Below, in pieces: positions 5,347 through 58,838 of a DNA stretch of 64,000 bases. The translations under genes were made by a program, and so were the position numbers. Position 1 is the first letter of the stretch. Each line of letters begins with the position of its first letter. Under the pieces are notes generated by a model that did no database searches, had not been told where the DNA came from, and saw only the letters and a list, made by a program, of their open reading frames with translations. Source of the DNA: Candidatus Eiseniibacteriota bacterium. Lineage in GTDB: Bacteria; Joyebacterota; Joyebacteria; Joyebacterales; Joyebacteraceae. The DNA is taken from contig JAUVLP010000001.1 of the NCBI GenBank assembly GCA_030600655.1, positions 2,022 through 66,021 on the forward strand, read 5' to 3'.

Positions 5347-7407
<2,061 letters not shown>

Positions 7408-22813: not shown

Positions 22814-22895
22814 GTGGAGTGAGGACTGGTTGGGTTGAGGAACAGGCGGGTCGAGGGATAGGTGGGTCGAGGGACAGGAACGACCCGCGGAGCGC

Positions 22896-43011: not shown

Positions 43012-44799
43012 ATGGCTACTTCGGGCGTGGTTGCTGAGATAACGGTCGGCCTCTCCAGCTGTGGGATTGCCGCCGGAGCTCGGGATGTGTTTGAGACCTT
43101 CCGGGAAAGGCTCCGTGGCCAGGGGATCGATGTCGAGCTCAAGCGCACGGGCTGTGTTGGGATGTGCTACAGGGAACCGCTCGTGGATGTAGTTGTTCCC
43201 GGGTTGGGGAAGACGACGTACGGCGGCGTCACCACCGAACGCGTCGACCGCATCATTGCTGAACACGTGGTGGGCGGAAAGCCGATCGAAGAGTGGTTGA
43301 TCCACGCCGACGGTCGGGAGTTTCCGGATGATGCCTACTTGGCGCCACAGGAGCGGATAGTCCTCAGGAACGCAGGTTTGATCGATCCTGAATCGATCGA
43401 TGACTACATAGATGCGGGCGGCTATGATGCTCTCGCGACCGTGCTCAAGTCCATGTCGCCCGGCGACATCATATCGGTAATCAAGGACTCCGGTCTGAGG
43501 GGGCGCGGCGGAGCCGGTTTTCCGACCGGCGTGAAGTGGGGTCTGGCCAAGCAGCAACCGGGAGACACCAAGTACGTCATAGTCAACGCCGACGAGGGAG
43601 ATCCCGGCGCCTTCATGGACAGGAGCATTCTTGAGGGCGACCCCCATTCGGTTCTAGAAGGCCTCGCGATCTCTGCGTTCGCAATCGGAGCCAACGAGGG
43701 CTACTTCTACGTCCGCGCGGAATACCCTCTCGCCATCAAGCGCCTTGAGATAGCTATTGCCGATGCCACGGAGCGAGGATTTCTCGGAAGCGACATTCTG
43801 GGATCCGGATTTGGATTTACAGTGAAGATCAAGGAAGGCGCCGGAGCTTTCGTCTGTGGCGAGGAGACGGCTCTCATCGCATCCATCGAGGGCAAGAGGG
43901 GGATGCCGAAGTTGCGGCCGCCGTATCCCGCTGTCGAAGGGCTCTGGGGCAAGCCGACCAACATCAACAACGTCGAAACGTATGCGAACATCGCCTGGAT
44001 CATCACAAATGGGGCCGCGGCGTATGCGAGCCACGGTACTGAGACCAGCAAGGGAACGAAGGTCTTCGCGCTCGCCGGGAAGATCGTTCGCGGTGGACTT
44101 GTTGAAGTCCCGATGGGCATTCGATTGAGAGACATCATCTTCAAGATCGGCGGTGGTGTACCTGAGGGACGGGTGTTCAAGGCCGTTCAGCTCGGTGGGC
44201 CATCCGGTGGCTGCATTCCGGAGGAGCACATTGACATCAAGGTCGATTACGAGTCCGTGACGAAAACGGGTGCTATCATGGGCTCGGGCGGAATGGTTGT
44301 CATGGACGATTCGACCTGCATGGTGGACATCGCGCGGTTCTTTCTCAACTTTACCCAGAACGAAAGCTGCGGCAAGTGCACGTTCTGTCGAGTAGGCACC
44401 AAGCGAATGCTGGAGATCCTTGAGCGCATTTGTGCCGGAGACGGACGGGAAGGCGATATCGAACTCCTGCAAGAGCTGGGCGAGAAAATCGTGAGTTCGT
44501 CGCTCTGTGGACTAGGGCAGAGCGCGCCGAACCCTGTTCTTACTACTATCAAGTACTTCAGGAATGAGTACGAGGCACACATTCGTGAGAAACGCTGCCC
44601 GGCGCTCGTGTGCAAGGCGCTTCTGACCTATGAAGTTGTTGCAGAGAATTGCGTAGGCTGTACGCTGTGCACCAGAGCATGTCCGGTGGGTGCGGTGAGC
44701 GGCGAGAAAAAGCAGCCGCACACAATAGATCAGGATCTCTGTACGAGCTGCGACGCGTGCAGACAGGTATGCAAGTTCGACGCGATCATGGTTCGCTAG
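43012..44799 (+). CDS. NuoF/HydB-like NADH-binding FMN/[4Fe-4S] flavoprotein with an N-terminal [2Fe-2S] domain and C-terminal 2x[4Fe-4S] (StnC-like)
   Basis: GRGGAGFPTGVKW (FMN site), VVNADEGDPGAFMDR (NADH site), ESCGKCTFCR (N3 cluster). The C-terminus CVGCTLCTRACP...CTSCDACRQVCKF has two ferredoxin motifs. The first ATG (MATSG) follows AAAGGGA. Confidence 0.85.
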   Translation: MATSGVVAEITVGLSSCGIAAGARDVFETFRERLRGQGIDVELKRTGCVGMCYREPLVDVVVPGLGKTTYGGVTTERVDRIIAEHVVGGKPIEEWLIHADGREFPDDAYLAPQERIVLRNAGLIDPESIDDYIDAGGYDALATVLKSMSPGDIISVIKDSGLRGRGGAGFPTGVKWGLAKQQPGDTKYVIVNADEGDPGAFMDRSILEGDPHSVLEGLAISAFAIGANEGYFYVRAEYPLAIKRLEIAIADATERGFLGSDILGSGFGFTVKIKEGAGAFVCGEETALIASIEGKRGMPKLRPPYPAVEGLWGKPTNINNVETYANIAWIITNGAAAYASHGTETSKGTKVFALAGKIVRGGLVEVPMGIRLRDIIFKIGGGVPEGRVFKAVQLGGPSGGCIPEEHIDIKVDYESVTKTGAIMGSGGMVVMDDSTCMVDIARFFLNFTQNESCGKCTFCRVGTKRMLEILERICAGDGREGDIELLQELGEKIVSSSLCGLGQSAPNPVLTTIKYFRNEYEAHIREKRCPALVCKALLTYEVVAENCVGCTLCTRACPVGAVSGEKKQPHTIDQDLCTSCDACRQVCKFDAIMVR

Positions 44800-54474: not shown

Positions 54475-55581
54475 ATGACACGAATCAAGAACCTGCTCGG
54501 GCGCCTTCGGGCGATCGACAGAGGTAGTATTGAGAAGCAGAGGGCCGAGGAACTCCTGGCTCTCTGCAGTTTGCTGGGTGTCCGGATCCACGACCTGGAA
54601 CTCTTGAACCAGGCACTCATGCACAGATCGTACGTCTATGATAGAGAAATGGGCAGGGCGCAGTCGAATGAACGCATGGAGTTTCTGGGCGACGCGATCC
54701 TGGGCCTTCTGGTCAACGAGCATTTGTATGCCGTGTATGCCACCAGGCAGGAAGGGCGCCTGACCAAGATCAAGTCACTTCTCGTGAGCGAGACCGTTCT
54801 GTCTCGAAGGGCGGAGGAACTCGCATTCGGCGACTATATCCTTCTTTCAGAGAATGAGCGGCTCTCCGGCGGAGCCAAGCGGCCTTCCATTCTTGCCGAT
54901 GCATTCGAAGCAGTCATCGCTGCCATCTACCTTGATGCAGGACTGCCCGCGGCGAGGCGGTTCGTGGAGAATCACATCCTCGCGAGCATGGATGACCTCC
55001 TGAACGTTGATGAGTACCGCAACTACAAGAGCATGATTCAGGAGCATGCTCAAAAGACGATGGGAGTGAGACCTCGCTACCGCGTGGTCTCCGCCACGGG
55101 TCCGGAGCACCGGCGGACCTTCTACGTCGAACTCAGACTGGGCGGCCGCTCGCTCGGACGCGGGGAGGGGCTGAACAAGAAGGTGGCCGAACAGATGGCT
55201 GCCCGAAACGCTCTGAGGAGCCTCAAGCTGATCCCTGAAAATGACAGCTCCAGTCTGGGGGCACCGGTTGTCCGGCGCCACAGACAGAGGAGGCCGTCGC
55301 CGAGAAAGCCCTCATCAGAAGGGCAGACGGAGTCGTCGAAGGGGCGGACAGCACCCCCCGCGAGGGCGAGAAGACCTTCACCCGAGAAACGAACGGTCGA
55401 TGTGAACGATCAGAAATCCCGGTCCCGTGAGGTTGTCCTCTCACCGGACCGACCGGGATCTCCAGAATCCCGGTCCCGTGAGGTTGCCCCCTCACCGGAC
55501 CGACCGGGATCTCCAGCGAGCGTACGGAAAGCAGCAATCAGACGGCGACGATGTAGAACTCCAAGGAAGGAGGCACCCTGA
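54475..55581 (+). CDS. rnc: Ribonuclease III with an unusual ~130-aa basic Pro/Arg/Ser-rich C-terminal extension
   Basis: Catalytic signature ERMEFLGDAILGLLVNEHLY, and a dsRBD (RRTFYVELRLGGRSLGRGEGLNKKVAEQMAARNAL). The ORF continues in frame for about 130 more residues (PVVRRHRQRRPSPRKPSSEGQTESSKGRTAPPARARRPSPEKR...RRRRCRTPRKEAP). The stop overlaps the bcd ATG (TGATG). Confidence 0.85.
   Translation: MTRIKNLLGRLRAIDRGSIEKQRAEELLALCSLLGVRIHDLELLNQALMHRSYVYDREMGRAQSNERMEFLGDAILGLLVNEHLYAVYATRQEGRLTKIKSLLVSETVLSRRAEELAFGDYILLSENERLSGGAKRPSILADAFEAVIAAIYLDAGLPAARRFVENHILASMDDLLNVDEYRNYKSMIQEHAQKTMGVRPRYRVVSATGPEHRRTFYVELRLGGRSLGRGEGLNKKVAEQMAARNALRSLKLIPENDSSSLGAPVVRRHRQRRPSPRKPSSEGQTESSKGRTAPPARARRPSPEKRTVDVNDQKSRSREVVLSPDRPGSPESRSREVAPSPDRPGSPASVRKAAIRRRRCRTPRKEAP
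55415..55516 (+). repeat. Two tandem 51-bp direct repeats, each internally hairpin-forming, inside the rnc 3' coding region
   Basis: Unit 1 at 55415-55465 and unit 2 at 55466-55516 (AATCCCGGTCCCGTGAGGTTG[TCCTC/CCCCC]TCACCGGACCGACCGGGATCTCCAG). Each unit has 9-bp inverted arms ATCCCGGTC ... GACCGGGAT. Both are in frame and encode ESRSREV[VL/AP]SPDRPGSP twice. Confidence 0.6.
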
Positions 55582-56750
55582 TGGACCACTTCCTGACTGA
55601 AGAACAGGAGATGCTGAAGGAACTCTGTGCACAGATAGCAAGGGAGAAGATCCTGCCGATGCGGGAGGAGCTTGATGAGAGCGGCGAGTTCCCTTGGGAG
55701 ATCGTCAAGGTGCTCGCCGAGTCGGACATCTACGGCGTCTACATCCCTGAGGAGTATGGTGGGTTCGGTGGCGGCGCGTTCGAGATGTGCATCGCAACAG
55801 AGGAACTATCGAAGGTCTGTGGGGGGATCTCGCTTGCCTTCGCCGCCTCAGCACTCGGCGCATATCCCATTCTTCTGTTCGGCTCCGACGAGCAGAAACG
55901 GAAGTATCTCCCACCGCTTGCTGCGGGCGAGAAGCTGGCGGCGTTCGCTCTCACCGAGGCCAATGCCGGCAGCGACGCTGGGGCCATCGAGACGCGTGCG
56001 GAGCTGGATGGCGATGAGTATGTCATAAACGGGACGAAGCAGTGGATAACCAACGGTGGCGAAGCGGATATCTACTCTGTCATCGTCAGAACGAAGAAGA
56101 GCGCAGGTCTTCGCGGGATATCCGCTCTGATCGTCGAGAAGGACACCCCCGGCCTGACATTCGGCAAGAGGGAAAACAAGATGGGCATTCGCGCATCGAC
56201 CACGCGGGAGCTCATCTTCCAGGACTGTCGTGTTCCGAAGGAGAATCTGCTGGGGCGCGAGGGGATGGGATTCATGGTTGCCATGCGAACCTTTGACAAG
56301 TCGCGGCCCGGTGTCGCATCGCAAGCGGTCGGCATCGCGCAGGGTGCTCTTGATGAAGCGGTCAGGTACGCGAGGCACAGGGAACAGTTCGGGCAGCCGG
56401 TAGCGTCTTTTCAGGCGATACAGTTCATGATCGCGGACATGGCGACTCAGATCGAGGCTGCAAGGTCTCTCGTCTACTCTGCGGCTCGACTGGTCGATTC
56501 GGGTGCGAAGGATGTCGGCAAGGCTTCTGCGATGGCCAAGGTGTTTGCCTCAGATGTGGCGATGAAGGTTACTGTCGATGCAGTACAGATACTCGGGGGG
56601 TACGGCTACATGAAGGAGTACCCCGTCGAGAAGATGATGAGAGACGCCAAGATAACGCAGATCTATGAGGGCACGAACCAGATTCAGCGTTCCATCATCG
56701 GTTCGGCCGTGATCAAGGAGAGCGCTGCCGAGGAGAGGAAGGGCAAGTAG
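55581..56750 (+). CDS. bcd: Acyl-CoA dehydrogenase (butyryl-CoA dehydrogenase-like)
   Basis: FLTEEQEMLKELCAQIAREKILP...YGGFGGGAFEMCIATEELSKVCGG, with the C-terminal catalytic region (YEGTNQIQRSIIG). About 389 aa. Confidence 0.85.
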   Translation: MDHFLTEEQEMLKELCAQIAREKILPMREELDESGEFPWEIVKVLAESDIYGVYIPEEYGGFGGGAFEMCIATEELSKVCGGISLAFAASALGAYPILLFGSDEQKRKYLPPLAAGEKLAAFALTEANAGSDAGAIETRAELDGDEYVINGTKQWITNGGEADIYSVIVRTKKSAGLRGISALIVEKDTPGLTFGKRENKMGIRASTTRELIFQDCRVPKENLLGREGMGFMVAMRTFDKSRPGVASQAVGIAQGALDEAVRYARHREQFGQPVASFQAIQFMIADMATQIEAARSLVYSAARLVDSGAKDVGKASAMAKVFASDVAMKVTVDAVQILGGYGYMKEYPVEKMMRDAKITQIYEGTNQIQRSIIGSAVIKESAAEERKGK

Positions 56751-57647: not shown

Positions 57648-58838
57648 GTGAGCAGCATAGAGGTACTAGAGGAACGATGCGTGGGTTGTGAGCTTTGCAT
57701 CAAAGCCTGTCTCTATGATGCCATAGAGATGCGTGATGGAATTGCGGTCATAAAGGACAACTGTACGCTCTGTGGCGCGTGTGTGGAGCCCTGTAAATTC
57801 GACGCGATCATCCTGAGACAGGAGAAGCGTGAGGCGGTCGAACTCAGTGACTATCGTGGCGTATGGGTGGTAGCCGAGCAGCGTGCGGGTGTGCTTCACG
57901 ACGTGTCGTTCGAGCTCCTCGGCAAAGGGCGCGAACTCGCCGAGGAACTCTCTGTCGAACTTTCTGCCGTTCTTCTTGGTTCGGGTGTTGAGGATCTCGC
58001 TCCACAACTGATTGCCCGCGGCGCCGATCGCGTGTATGTGGTTGATGAGCCGGAGCTGGAGCATTTTCTCGATGAGCCTTACTCCAACGTTGTGGCTGAG
58101 CTGATAGGGAGACACAGCCCCGAGATCGTGCTCACCGGTGCGACCTCAATGGGGCGTTCGCTTATTCCTAGAGTAGCGGTTCAGGTGAAGACGGGACTCA
58201 CGGCGGACTGCACGGGCCTCGCGATCGATGACAAGGAGAGGCTTCTCCTTCAGACGAGACCGGCGTTCGGCGGGAATATCATGGCCACCATCATCTGTCC
58301 GGACTTCAGACCGCAAATGGCGACCGTCCGTCACAAGGTCATGTCGGCTCTCGATGCAGATCCATCGAGAAAGGGCGAAATCGTGCGGGAGAAGATGGAT
58401 GCTGTGCTTCTGGAGTCGAAGGTAGAGTACATCGAATTCGTGAAGGATCTGACACAGACGATCAACATTGCAGATGCCGACATCATCGTGTCTGGCGGCC
58501 GTGGCCTCGGTGGCCCCGAGAATTTCCATCTTGTTGAAGAACTTGCTGAAGCGATGGGGGGAGCGGTCGGAGCCTCTCGTGCGGCGGTCGACGCCGGGTG
58601 GGTACCGTACTCACACCAGGTGGGGCAGACAGGCAAAACGGTGCAACCGAAGCTCTACATTGCCTGCGGGATCTCAGGAGCCGTTCAGCACTTGGCGGGA
58701 ATGCAGTCATCAAAGACGATTGTTGCGATCAACAAGGACCCCGACGCACCAATTTTCCACGCTGCGACCTACGGCATCGTCGGGGATCTCTTTGACGTTC
58801 TCCCTGCTCTCACTAAGAGCCTGAAGGCTGAGCTTTAG
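57648..58838 (+). CDS. etfA: Electron transfer flavoprotein α subunit with N-terminal 2x[4Fe-4S] ferredoxin domain
   Basis: N-terminus [16 protein letters not shown]...[16 protein letters not shown]. The EtfA core ([19 protein letters not shown]...) and the FAD-binding C-terminus ([22 protein letters not shown]) follow. Confidence 0.85.

Follow-up and report, generated by a model that had tools for sequence, protein, structure and literature searches.

The usual picture of bacterial RNase III is that of a minimal enzyme with two domains. The rnc gene considered here raises the question of why its product runs far past those two domains, and of what two tandem, hairpin-forming repeats represent in the part that runs past. 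The original prediction offered two answers: either a small palindromic repeat element was domesticated into the coding sequence, or the extra sequence is a genuine RNA-binding, RS-like extension. We have followed up both in the window, by which we mean the whole 64-kb stretch of DNA that was analysed, and in related genomes, which are given by locus where they have to be told apart (L001 is the closest relative and L002 the next).

The RNase III core and its C-terminal tail

The gene, its parts and its downstream neighbour are as follows.

54475..55581 (stop included), + strand: rnc, RNase III of 368 aa (ORF list; Pfam; PDB alignments)
54595..54987, + strand: RNase III catalytic domain, aa 41-171 (Pfam; AlphaFold model, pLDDT >90)
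55024..55224, + strand: dsRBD, aa 184-250 (Pfam dsrm; AlphaFold model)
55225..55578, + strand: C-terminal tail, aa 251-368, predicted to be disordered, polycationic and Arg/Pro/Ser-rich (pLDDT, composition, frame)
55273..55308, + strand: proximal basic patch RRHRQRRPSPRK, aa 267-278 (translation; aligned patches in L001-L004)
55537..55578, + strand: terminal motif IRRRRCRTPRKEAP, a poly-Arg patch and then TP-x-KE (closes the protein in L001-L004 and P0005)
55567..55573, + strand: AAGGAGG, Shine-Dalgarno of the downstream gene, within the last Lys-Glu codons of rnc
55581..56750, + strand: acyl-CoA dehydrogenase gene (Pfam Acyl-CoA_dh_N, Acyl-CoA_dh_M and Acyl-CoA_dh_1)

Judged by its domains and residues, the protein is an ordinary class 1 bacterial RNase III, with a catalytic domain and one dsRBD, from a Candidatus Eisenbacteria-like genome. 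Pfam matches it to Ribonucleas_3_3 (PF14622, 1.6e-34), PF00636 (1.2e-21) and dsrm (1.2e-16). Like other class 1 enzymes it has one RNase III domain with the ERxEFLGD signature, here present as NERMEFLGD, and all the catalytic acidic residues; E66, E69, D73, D142 and E145 are intact, and are invariant across a 32-sequence alignment. Both Pfam and the AlphaFold model place the single dsRBD directly C-terminal of the catalytic domain, and in the model it adopts an alpha-beta-beta-beta-alpha arrangement (helices at residues 184-196 and 235-249, strands at 201-208, 215-222 and 225-232). PDB chains from Campylobacter (3n3w), Thermotoga (1o0w), Mycobacterium (2a11) and Aquifex (1yyk) align with E values of 2e-39 to 1e-24. 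The solved bacterial RNase III chains comprise 221-252 aa and align with residues ~30-253 of Rnc only, none of them past ~residue 253.

What does not match class 1 is the two-domain layout of ~220-250 aa, seen for example in E. coli Rnc, which has 226 aa with its RNase III domain (RIIID) at 6-128 and its dsRBD at 155-225 (PMC8708148). The ORF list gives 368 aa for the protein studied here, and ~118 aa remain past the Pfam dsRBD, so that the claim of an over-long Rnc is borne out. This stretch, predicted to be disordered and polycationic, follows a dsRBD past which canonical enzymes have only a few to ~15 residues, and the protein further differs from them in an N-terminal extension of ~20 aa. 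Because the tail is an addition and no feature is missing, membership of the class 1 core stands.

The tail is made up of 22% Arg, 15% Pro and 15% Ser and has a pI of 11.9 and a net charge of ~+18.5 (110 aa analysed). Its pLDDT in the AlphaFold model is 40-56, with secondary structure absent from ~residue 255 onward. The description of the tail as RS-like is apt for its composition and fails for an RS domain proper: there are 7 RS/SR dipeptides in 121 residues, found as two short SRSR runs, and we rejected an RS domain of the eukaryotic type since long consecutive RS/SR runs are absent. Drosha, a class 2 RNase III, has an N-terminal region that is Pro-rich and Arg/Ser-rich. The tail resembles this region, and RS domains, in being a Pro/Arg/Ser low-complexity part of an RNase III family member, but the likeness is compositional; the region here is C-terminal and non-homologous, and has the low dipeptide count just given. 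The other ORFs of the 64-kb window were also checked for basic low-complexity tails, and were found to have short patches only.

The original prediction was also correct in stating that rnc ends at the start of the next gene. The stop codon TGA occupies 55579-55581 and the next ATG 55581-55583 (TGATG), and this overlap is kept in 11 genomes (the window, L001-L008, L081 and L082). In 9 of these (the window and L001-L008) AAGGAG was read directly inside the K-E codons. Unlike in canonical class 1 Rnc, the gene that rnc overlaps, and to which it is presumably translationally coupled, is an acyl-CoA dehydrogenase gene rather than era. A feature in common with the canonical enzymes is that acpP-fabF adjoins rnc.

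Conservation of the tail among relatives

It had been suggested that a comparison of rnc length with related genomes might expose the tail as an artefact, should the frame break right after the dsRBD in those genomes. The long tail is instead common to the relatives, none of which has a stop or frameshift at that point: the tail frame contains 0 stops over 106-184 codons in seven genomes (the window and 6 relatives), and the remaining forward frames of the same seven contain 0-7 stops over the tail region. The long-tailed relatives also have in common the poly-Arg terminal motif and the overlap with the downstream acyl-CoA dehydrogenase gene, and the five closest homologues, of 353-431 aa, each close with RRRRRRTP(K/R/S)KE. 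Differences in tail length are in-frame gaps in the protein alignment. A frameshift or run-on artefact is ruled out by the frame and terminal motif kept in seven genomes, and the conserved frame, terminal motif and gene overlap support the view that the tail is a genuine, translated C-terminal extension that is conserved as a feature, which is the half of the second proposed answer that has held up.

Among the 100 nearest homologues whose dsRBD end could be located, 83 have a tail of 30-39 aa (median 35) and 7 have a tail of >100 aa. The short-tailed homologues terminate in an RRRKKE variant of the motif and carry, in most of the short tails listed, a net tail charge of +8 to +17; the long tails all carry +19 to +34. 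Beyond the clade, RNase III tails are short, and either neutral or acidic. Nothing pertinent came up when the literature was searched for bacterial RNase III enzymes that have a C-terminal, Arg-rich or disordered tail.

Comparison with L001 gives a tail dN/dS of 0.69 and a core dN/dS of 0.11, and across comparisons the ranges are 0.65-0.71 and 0.11-0.14, respectively. On these ratios the constraint on the tail is relaxed, not absent. A tail value of ~0.7 is nevertheless near neutral, so that much of the spacer between the basic patches may be without sequence-specific function. It could also be argued that the whole tail is functionless, a near-neutral read-through that is kept so that ribosomes reach the overlapping acyl-CoA dehydrogenase start, with the repeats being neutral slippage. 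The dN/dS would fit this alternative, as would a tail that ranges in length over 106-184 aa from one close relative to another and differs in its repeat units, which are unrelated, and terminal K-E codons that are constrained by the Shine-Dalgarno of the next gene. We think it unlikely, however, given that the composition is tightly held despite the turnover, as the net charges above indicate, that the poly-Arg run is conserved even though it lies outside the Shine-Dalgarno, and that coupling by itself would need the last few codons only, with ~35 aa sufficing in 83 of the 100 homologues.

Origin of the 51-bp units

The two repeats lie within the tail.

55415..55465, + strand: unit copy 1, peptide SRSREVVLSPDRPGSPE, with arms at 55416-55424 and 55451-55459
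55466..55516, + strand: unit copy 2, peptide SRSREVAPSPDRPGSPA, with arms at 55467-55475 and 55502-55510

In Tandem Repeats Finder the stretch 55415-55516 comes out with a period of 51, 2.0 copies, 96% matches and a score of 190. This is the top-scoring tandem repeat in the window, and it is listed first (D1) among the window's 25 direct-repeat families. The repeats are present as first described: 9-bp inverted arms, ATCCCGGTC/GACCGGGAT, occur in both units, the units are identical at 49/51 bases and, as 51 bases make 17 codons, the repeat is in frame. Both differences are T/C at second codon positions, so that one copy reads Val-Leu where the other reads Ala-Pro. Each unit is nearly neutral in charge, its 3 Arg being offset by 3 or 2 acidic residues, so that the duplication adds length, not charge.

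According to the first of the two proposed answers, the unit would be a REP/MITE-like palindromic mobile element that was inserted in rnc and domesticated as coding sequence. The unit is an imperfect palindrome of ~44 nt that can form a stem-loop, as such elements do, and two copies of it are adjacent. Yet no further copy was found in the 64-kb window by searches that used two 20-mers and tolerated up to 3 mismatches, that used the arm pattern at a variable gap, or that looked for direct repeats, and the location inside a CDS does not follow the insertion pattern of these elements, which are usually intergenic. The metagenome collection returned 0 matches to an exact 20-mer or to a loop-tolerant 27-nt pattern, and so the dispersed spread that had been envisaged was seen neither there nor in the window. 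Among 80 related loci L001 alone matches, at orthologous codons, where it carries one copy of the unit as ordinary coding sequence and no array; copy 2 of the window is nearer to this single copy than copy 1 is. The unit is thus not absent from all relatives, an outcome that the original prediction had also considered, and its peptide is partly kept in L002, in which APSPDR is still recognisable. Furthermore, the flanks are continuous in the alignment of the window with L001, with no target-site duplication or flank discontinuity visible. The single L001 copy and the L002 peptide together indicate that what was duplicated is ancestral tail sequence rather than an inserted element, and we consider a domesticated mobile element extremely improbable.

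At the same tail site as the window's repeat, five relatives have arrays of their own, with periods that are all multiples of 3.

L003: 30 bp x 10.6
L004: 30 bp x 5.1
L002: 15 bp x 8
L081: 54 bp x 3.7
L082: 30 bp x 7.2

Other in-frame arrays at this site in five relatives point to a repeat-prone spacer. The window's repeat has what is expected of an in-frame coding tandem repeat, namely the period, the near-identity of its copies, variation among relatives, low complexity and predicted disorder. It is like bacterial coding VNTRs and minisatellites in its period being a multiple of three, in its near-identical copies, in its low-complexity site and in the changes of unit and of copy number from one close relative to the next, and unlike them in having just two copies. 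On the comparison with L001 and L002, the 51-bp repeats are a recent single in-frame duplication of pre-existing tail codons; we call it recent because the copies differ at only 2/51 bases. The duplication most likely arose through replication slippage or unequal recombination.

A second copy might also come about as an assembly artefact, for example if two strain alleles, one with Val-Leu and one with Ala-Pro, had been joined in tandem. The closest relative is single-copy, the two copies in the window differ at exactly the sites that would distinguish the alleles, and a look-up of the exact protein found it in no other public assembly, all of which would be in keeping with such a join. However, tandem arrays of 2-10 copies occur here in five independent assemblies from different projects, so that repetition at this site is biologically usual, and the duplication is exactly in frame and leaves the protein intact to its conserved terminal motif. 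We regard an artefact of this kind as very improbable.

The hairpin and the proposed role of the tail

When the RNA structure of the unit was predicted, as had been advised, the two copies gave hairpins of -24.5 and -27.0 kcal/mol (z -3.3 and -4.2 against dinucleotide shuffles), and only 9/3000 and 1/3000 codon-order shuffles, respectively, folded as well. The hairpins are thus stronger than their composition alone would give. Within the genome they are no outliers, in that 0.3-0.8% of the 51-nt windows in the 64 kb (71-171 others) fold at least as well. A helix of the kind that RNase III cuts would be expected to be irregular and to span some two helical turns (~20 bp) or more. The helix of a single unit has 17 pairs with two bulges; alternatively, the two units can pair in an imperfect duplex of ~40 bp at -55.5 kcal/mol (z -3.8), which has an ensemble frequency of 0.01. 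We found no terminator-like site and no U-run after the hairpins, and a terminator or attenuator was rejected.

Hairpins of this strength, ~17 bp per unit, could give the rnc mRNA a functional RNA element, either an autoregulatory RNase III target or a site that uncouples rnc from the acyl-CoA dehydrogenase/ETF genes. There is precedent for RNase III regulating itself by cutting its own mRNA: E. coli does so in the 5' UTR, and S. aureus within the CDS (PMC3386247, PMC8708148). The hairpins would share with E. coli rncO and the S. aureus site (PMC3386247) a stable irregular helix within the enzyme's own mRNA, but here the predicted helix is at the 3' end of the CDS and is not kept in the closest relatives. 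In the register of the window 14/17 pairs are kept in L001, 12/17 in L002 and 9/17 in both L003 and L004. The orthologous segment of L002 does fold well, in another register (z -2.9), and this, together with the shuffle counts and the two-unit duplex, would favour an element. In L001, by contrast, the outer 9-bp stem is broken and the z-score is -0.95, and in L003 and L004 (z +0.15 and +0.37) the structure is absent. A base-by-base comparison of the aligned arms in the relatives revealed no compensatory (both-sides) changes. With L002 as outgroup, two of the substitutions that perfect the stem appear to have arisen in this lineage alone; each of them alters an amino acid. The arrays of the other lineages fold no better than shuffles and appear unstructured, and the only Rfam hit at E<=1, to FinP on the minus strand, scored 21.8 bits, below the gathering score of 45, and was treated as noise. 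The frequency of equally good folds in the 64 kb and the low ensemble frequency of the long fold also count against an element. We consider an RNA element distinctly unlikely, and rejected a conserved RNA structure on the pair counts and z-scores of the orthologous segments. Going by these comparisons, the strong hairpin is a lineage-specific palindrome, not a conserved RNA element, and it is probably incidental, given that L001 has it in degraded form and other relatives lack it. In view of the excess over codon shuffles and the L002 fold, the hairpin may nevertheless have some structural role.

The reading that we prefer, with a probability of roughly 70%, is that the protein has a genuine disordered polycationic tail, a putative RNA tether, and that the tail includes a repeat-prone spacer with a recent 51-bp duplication. 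The tail has three parts. A basic patch comes right behind the dsRBD, a low-complexity spacer that evolves fast comes next, and a conserved poly-Arg patch closes the protein, its last codons doubling as the Shine-Dalgarno of the acyl-CoA dehydrogenase gene. The spacer is prone to tandem repeats, with separate lineages having expanded separate in-frame units; in the lineage of the window a 17-codon stretch of the tail was duplicated once, recently, and the hairpin of the unit may have aided slippage. The tail may act as a non-specific electrostatic tether that raises affinity for, or dwell time on, RNA (pre-rRNA and structured mRNAs), and the repeat spacer may set the reach of the terminal poly-Arg patch.

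We reasonably infer that the tail binds RNA from its composition and from the basic tails of other RNA enzymes. In the DEAD-box proteins Mss116 and CYT-19 an unstructured basic C-terminal tail tethers the core to structured RNA, and the C-terminal half of RNase E has Arg-rich segments. As in these proteins, a disordered, Arg-rich, non-conserved addition accompanies a folded RNA-processing core, and an electrostatic tether is proposed; the enzyme class is a different one and the sequences are non-homologous, so that the likeness is an analogy of how the tail might work. A broader reading would combine a clade-wide module of Eisenbacteria RNase III that tethers it to pre-rRNA, ribosomes or RNA-rich condensates, a repeat that acts as an evolvable length adjuster, a possible analogue in Gemmatimonadota with a much longer charged tail, and a self-cleavable mRNA helix that provides feedback as well as uncoupling from the downstream fatty-acid oxidation genes. 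We consider this combination as a whole unlikely.

The long-tailed RNase III is an undescribed yet unsurprising variation on a well-known enzyme, and the findings matter chiefly for annotation: the long ORF is correct, and the repeat reflects neither an inserted mobile element nor an artefactual frameshift. An uncultured clade adds a polycationic tail of ~35 aa to the enzyme, and one sub-lineage has expanded it to 106-184 aa via independent in-frame repeats. If the tail alters the substrate range of the enzyme, its localisation or the formation of condensates, this would provide a simple bacterial case of a disordered region tuning a conserved RNA nuclease, with parallels in RNase E and in the RNase III enzymes of eukaryotes.

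An RNase III with a long basic tail

The window encodes a class-1 bacterial RNase III in which both defining domains are present, and whose architecture differs from the family norm by its tail.

54475-55581, + strand: rnc ORF, 368 aa (ORF listing)
aa 41-171: RNase III catalytic domain (Pfam PF14622, 1.6e-34)
aa 184-250: single double-stranded RNA-binding domain (dsRBD; Pfam PF00035, 1.2e-16)

As the original prediction held, the protein is longer than canonical Rnc, with about 118 residues C-terminal to the dsRBD. Catalytic residues E66, E69, D73, D142 and E145 are invariant in a 32-sequence alignment, and thus the enzyme looks active. In gene order, acpP and fabF precede rnc, and the acyl-CoA dehydrogenase and ETF beta genes follow it. 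Protein and genome searches alike gave MAGs labelled Candidatus Eisenbacteria as best matches. We note that, compared with E. coli Rnc, the protein is also extended by about 20 aa at its N-terminus, a feature conserved in the clade (MTRIQSLLGRLRVIDKG...; window 54475-54594, aa 1-40), with two predicted helices, the first of low confidence.

The tail is translated and conserved. When the DNA was read in the window and in six related loci (L001-L004, L081 and L082, of which L001 is the closest relative and L002 the next), the tail frame ran for 106-184 codons without a stop, against 0-7 stops in the two remaining forward frames, and in none of the six did a stop or frameshift follow directly on the dsRBD. 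The five closest homologues are 353-431 aa long and 69-84% identical over the alignment, where tail lengths differ the protein alignment shows gaps that keep the frame, and all five proteins end in ...RRRRRRTP(K/R/S)KE(T/A)(P/R). The open frame, this shared terminal motif and a conserved stop/start overlap with the next gene bear out the proposal that the extension is genuine. In the 100 nearest homologues with a locatable dsRBD end, tails of 30-39 aa (median 35) occur in 83 and tails of more than 100 aa in seven; most of the short tails printed have a net charge of +8 to +17 and typically end in ...RRRPRRRKKE. In a wider survey of 80 loci, one genome per species, basic tails were restricted to the Eisenbacteria-like loci L001-L010, two Gemmatimonadota genomes excepted, and short neutral or acidic Rnc ends were found in Krumholzibacteria, Latescibacteria, Planctomycetota, Bacteroidota and others. 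In the L010 protein, a more distant homologue (P0116, 319 aa, L010:4001-4867; 52% identity), the tail is 74 aa long and rich in Ala, Ser and Arg; it is unlike that of the window in composition and lacks the poly-Arg/KKE end. Opposite the tail lies an antisense ORF of 104 aa (55223-55537, - strand), in whose translation the repeat is visible; the matching minus-strand frames of relatives are inconsistent (0-8 stops), and the ORF is most likely a by-product of GC-rich low-complexity sequence.

The ORF does end at the start of the next gene, the rnc stop TGA (55579-55581) overlapping the acyl-CoA dehydrogenase ATG (55581-55583). This overlap is kept in L001-L008, L081 and L082, as TGATG in L001-L004 and as ATGA in L005-L008. 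The final Lys-Glu codons of rnc read AAGGAG in the window and in L001-L008. This is the Shine-Dalgarno sequence of the downstream gene (junction at 55567-55583), which explains in part why the C-terminal motif is conserved. Given this arrangement and the conserved overlap, rnc is apparently coupled translationally to the genes downstream, that is, an RNA-processing enzyme to a fatty-acid oxidation/ETF operon. The tail might then be neutral read-through, retained solely for that coupling. Approximate dN/dS values against four relatives, from a low-complexity alignment, are 0.11-0.14 for the core and 0.65-0.71 for the tail, and the comparison suggests a tail that is weakly constrained in sequence and keeps its frame, charge and terminal motif; we consider neutral read-through unlikely.

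A tandem duplication within the tail

Tandem Repeats Finder reports a single strong array in the whole window, at 55415-55516 (period 51, 2.0 copies, 96% matches, score 190), which is also D1, the first-listed direct-repeat family in the 64 kb. Each unit is 17 codons, in frame, as predicted. Two T/C differences fall at second codon positions, so that one copy encodes Val-Leu and the other Ala-Pro. It is very improbable that the second copy is an assembly artefact.

The tail of L001 (80% amino acid identity by BLASTP) lacks a tandem repeat and has the unit just once, at orthologous codons, reading KPRPREVAPSPDRSESPA, to which copy 2 (55466-55516, Ala-Pro) is a closer match than copy 1 (55415-55465); L002 retains ...AAPSPDR... 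at the orthologous place. These alignments argue against insertion from outside and for old tail sequence that was duplicated in the window lineage. The original prediction had offered a domesticated palindromic element and would have counted a unit unique in the genome and absent from all relatives against itself; one copy is present in L001. Its proposed genome-wide search for REP/MITE-like copies, run on the 64 kb, returned only the two adjacent copies, and two scans of metagenome sequence found none. A mobile element thus fails on its defining features, there being no dispersed copies in the 64 kb and an orthologous single copy in L001, and we give a domesticated REP/MITE-like element almost no credence. 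As a coding tandem duplication, recent and in frame, the 51-bp repeat is ordinary; relatives have expanded other units at the same site.

Tandem arrays in related rnc loci
L003:4873-5188, 30 bp x 10.6
L004:4937-5088, 30 bp x 5.1
L002:4908-5041, 15 bp x ~8
L081:2295-2496, 54 bp x 3.7
L082:993-1209 (more distant homologue), 30 bp x 7.2

These arrays are in frame, independent and built of differing units, and they occupy the same part of the Rnc tail as the window repeat. By eye, the L081 unit seems to contain a counterpart of the first half of the window unit. Their positions point to a repeat-prone spacer between two basic patches.

Elsewhere in the window, the second-best tandem repeat is at 22832-22878 (16 bp x 2.9, score 66, GGGTCGAGGGACAGGC). 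A 58-nt direct repeat of 71% identity (44732-44789 and 57754-57811, 13 kb apart, the latter just downstream of the ETF beta gene) is probably a coding motif common to paralogous genes.

A probably incidental hairpin

The predicted 9-bp arms, ATCCCGGTC/GACCGGGAT, are found in both units, which fold as interrupted 17-bp hairpins of -24.5 and -27.0 kcal/mol. Both fold better than dinucleotide-shuffled sequence (z -3.3 and -4.2), and only 9/3000 and 1/3000 codon-order shuffles fold equally well, which makes the palindrome a real one. At genome scale it does not stand out: of all 51-nt windows in the 64 kb, 0.3-0.8% match or exceed its stability; segments near 6979, 7225, 3685, 57016 and 33655 are more stable (-31 to -34 kcal/mol). 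The pairs kept in the window register number 14/17 in L001 (z -0.95), 12/17 in L002, and 9/17 in L003 and L004 (z ~0). A shift of register gives L002 a good fold (-26.6 kcal/mol, z -2.9), and a short inner stem, GTGAGG/CCTCAC, occurs in the window and L001 and, through a G-U pair, also in L002. Base by base, the outer 9-bp stem differs between the window and L001 by four one-sided substitutions, none on both sides of a pair; with L002 as outgroup, and polarity thus from three taxa, at least two are derived in the window lineage, and the derived changes alter the amino acid (Pro to Ser, Glu to Gly). A functional RNA hairpin, or a self-target of RNase III, is improbable. Since the hairpin is poorly kept in relatives, whose arrays are in no case more stably folded than shuffled controls, and since it has no Rfam match above noise and no terminator was found there, we regard it as an incidental, lineage-specific palindrome. 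Indeed, the Arg codon CGG is the reverse complement of the Pro codon CCG, and the Ser codon TCC that of the Gly codon GGA, so palindromes are favoured by the composition of the tail. The palindrome may plausibly have favoured the duplication by stabilising a slipped intermediate.

A possible electrostatic tether

The tail (110 aa analysed) is 22% Arg, 15% Pro and 15% Ser, with a pI of 11.9 and a net charge of about +18.5. AlphaFold2, with the 32-sequence alignment, gives pLDDT >90 for residues ~20-250 and 40-56, without secondary structure, from about residue 255 to 368, and none of the solved RNase III chains aligns past about residue 253. The tail is thus polycationic and predicted to be disordered. 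The RS-like character also offered by the original prediction holds for composition only: with seven RS/SR dipeptides in 121 aa the tail is not an RS domain, and the likeness to the Pro-/RS-rich N-terminus of Drosha is one of composition only. Literature searches returned no account of such tails in bacterial RNase III. The unstructured basic tails of the DEAD-box proteins Mss116 and CYT-19, and the Arg-rich segments of RNase E, act as electrostatic RNA tethers, and by analogy the tail may be a non-specific tether of this kind. Under such a model, how far the terminal poly-Arg patch reaches would depend on spacer length. With almost no net charge of its own, the duplicated unit adds length and not charge.

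Lastly, the Rnc proteins of two Gemmatimonadota MAGs, L011 (L011:4001-5875) and L013, are 624-628 aa long, with tails of 377-381 aa after the dsRBD. These tails are low-complexity and rich in Arg, Glu and Asp; Pfam finds no other domain in them, and they close with a basic patch (SRRKRRHARGLRRR). Their layout is similar to that of the window tail, but they are far longer and of mixed charge.
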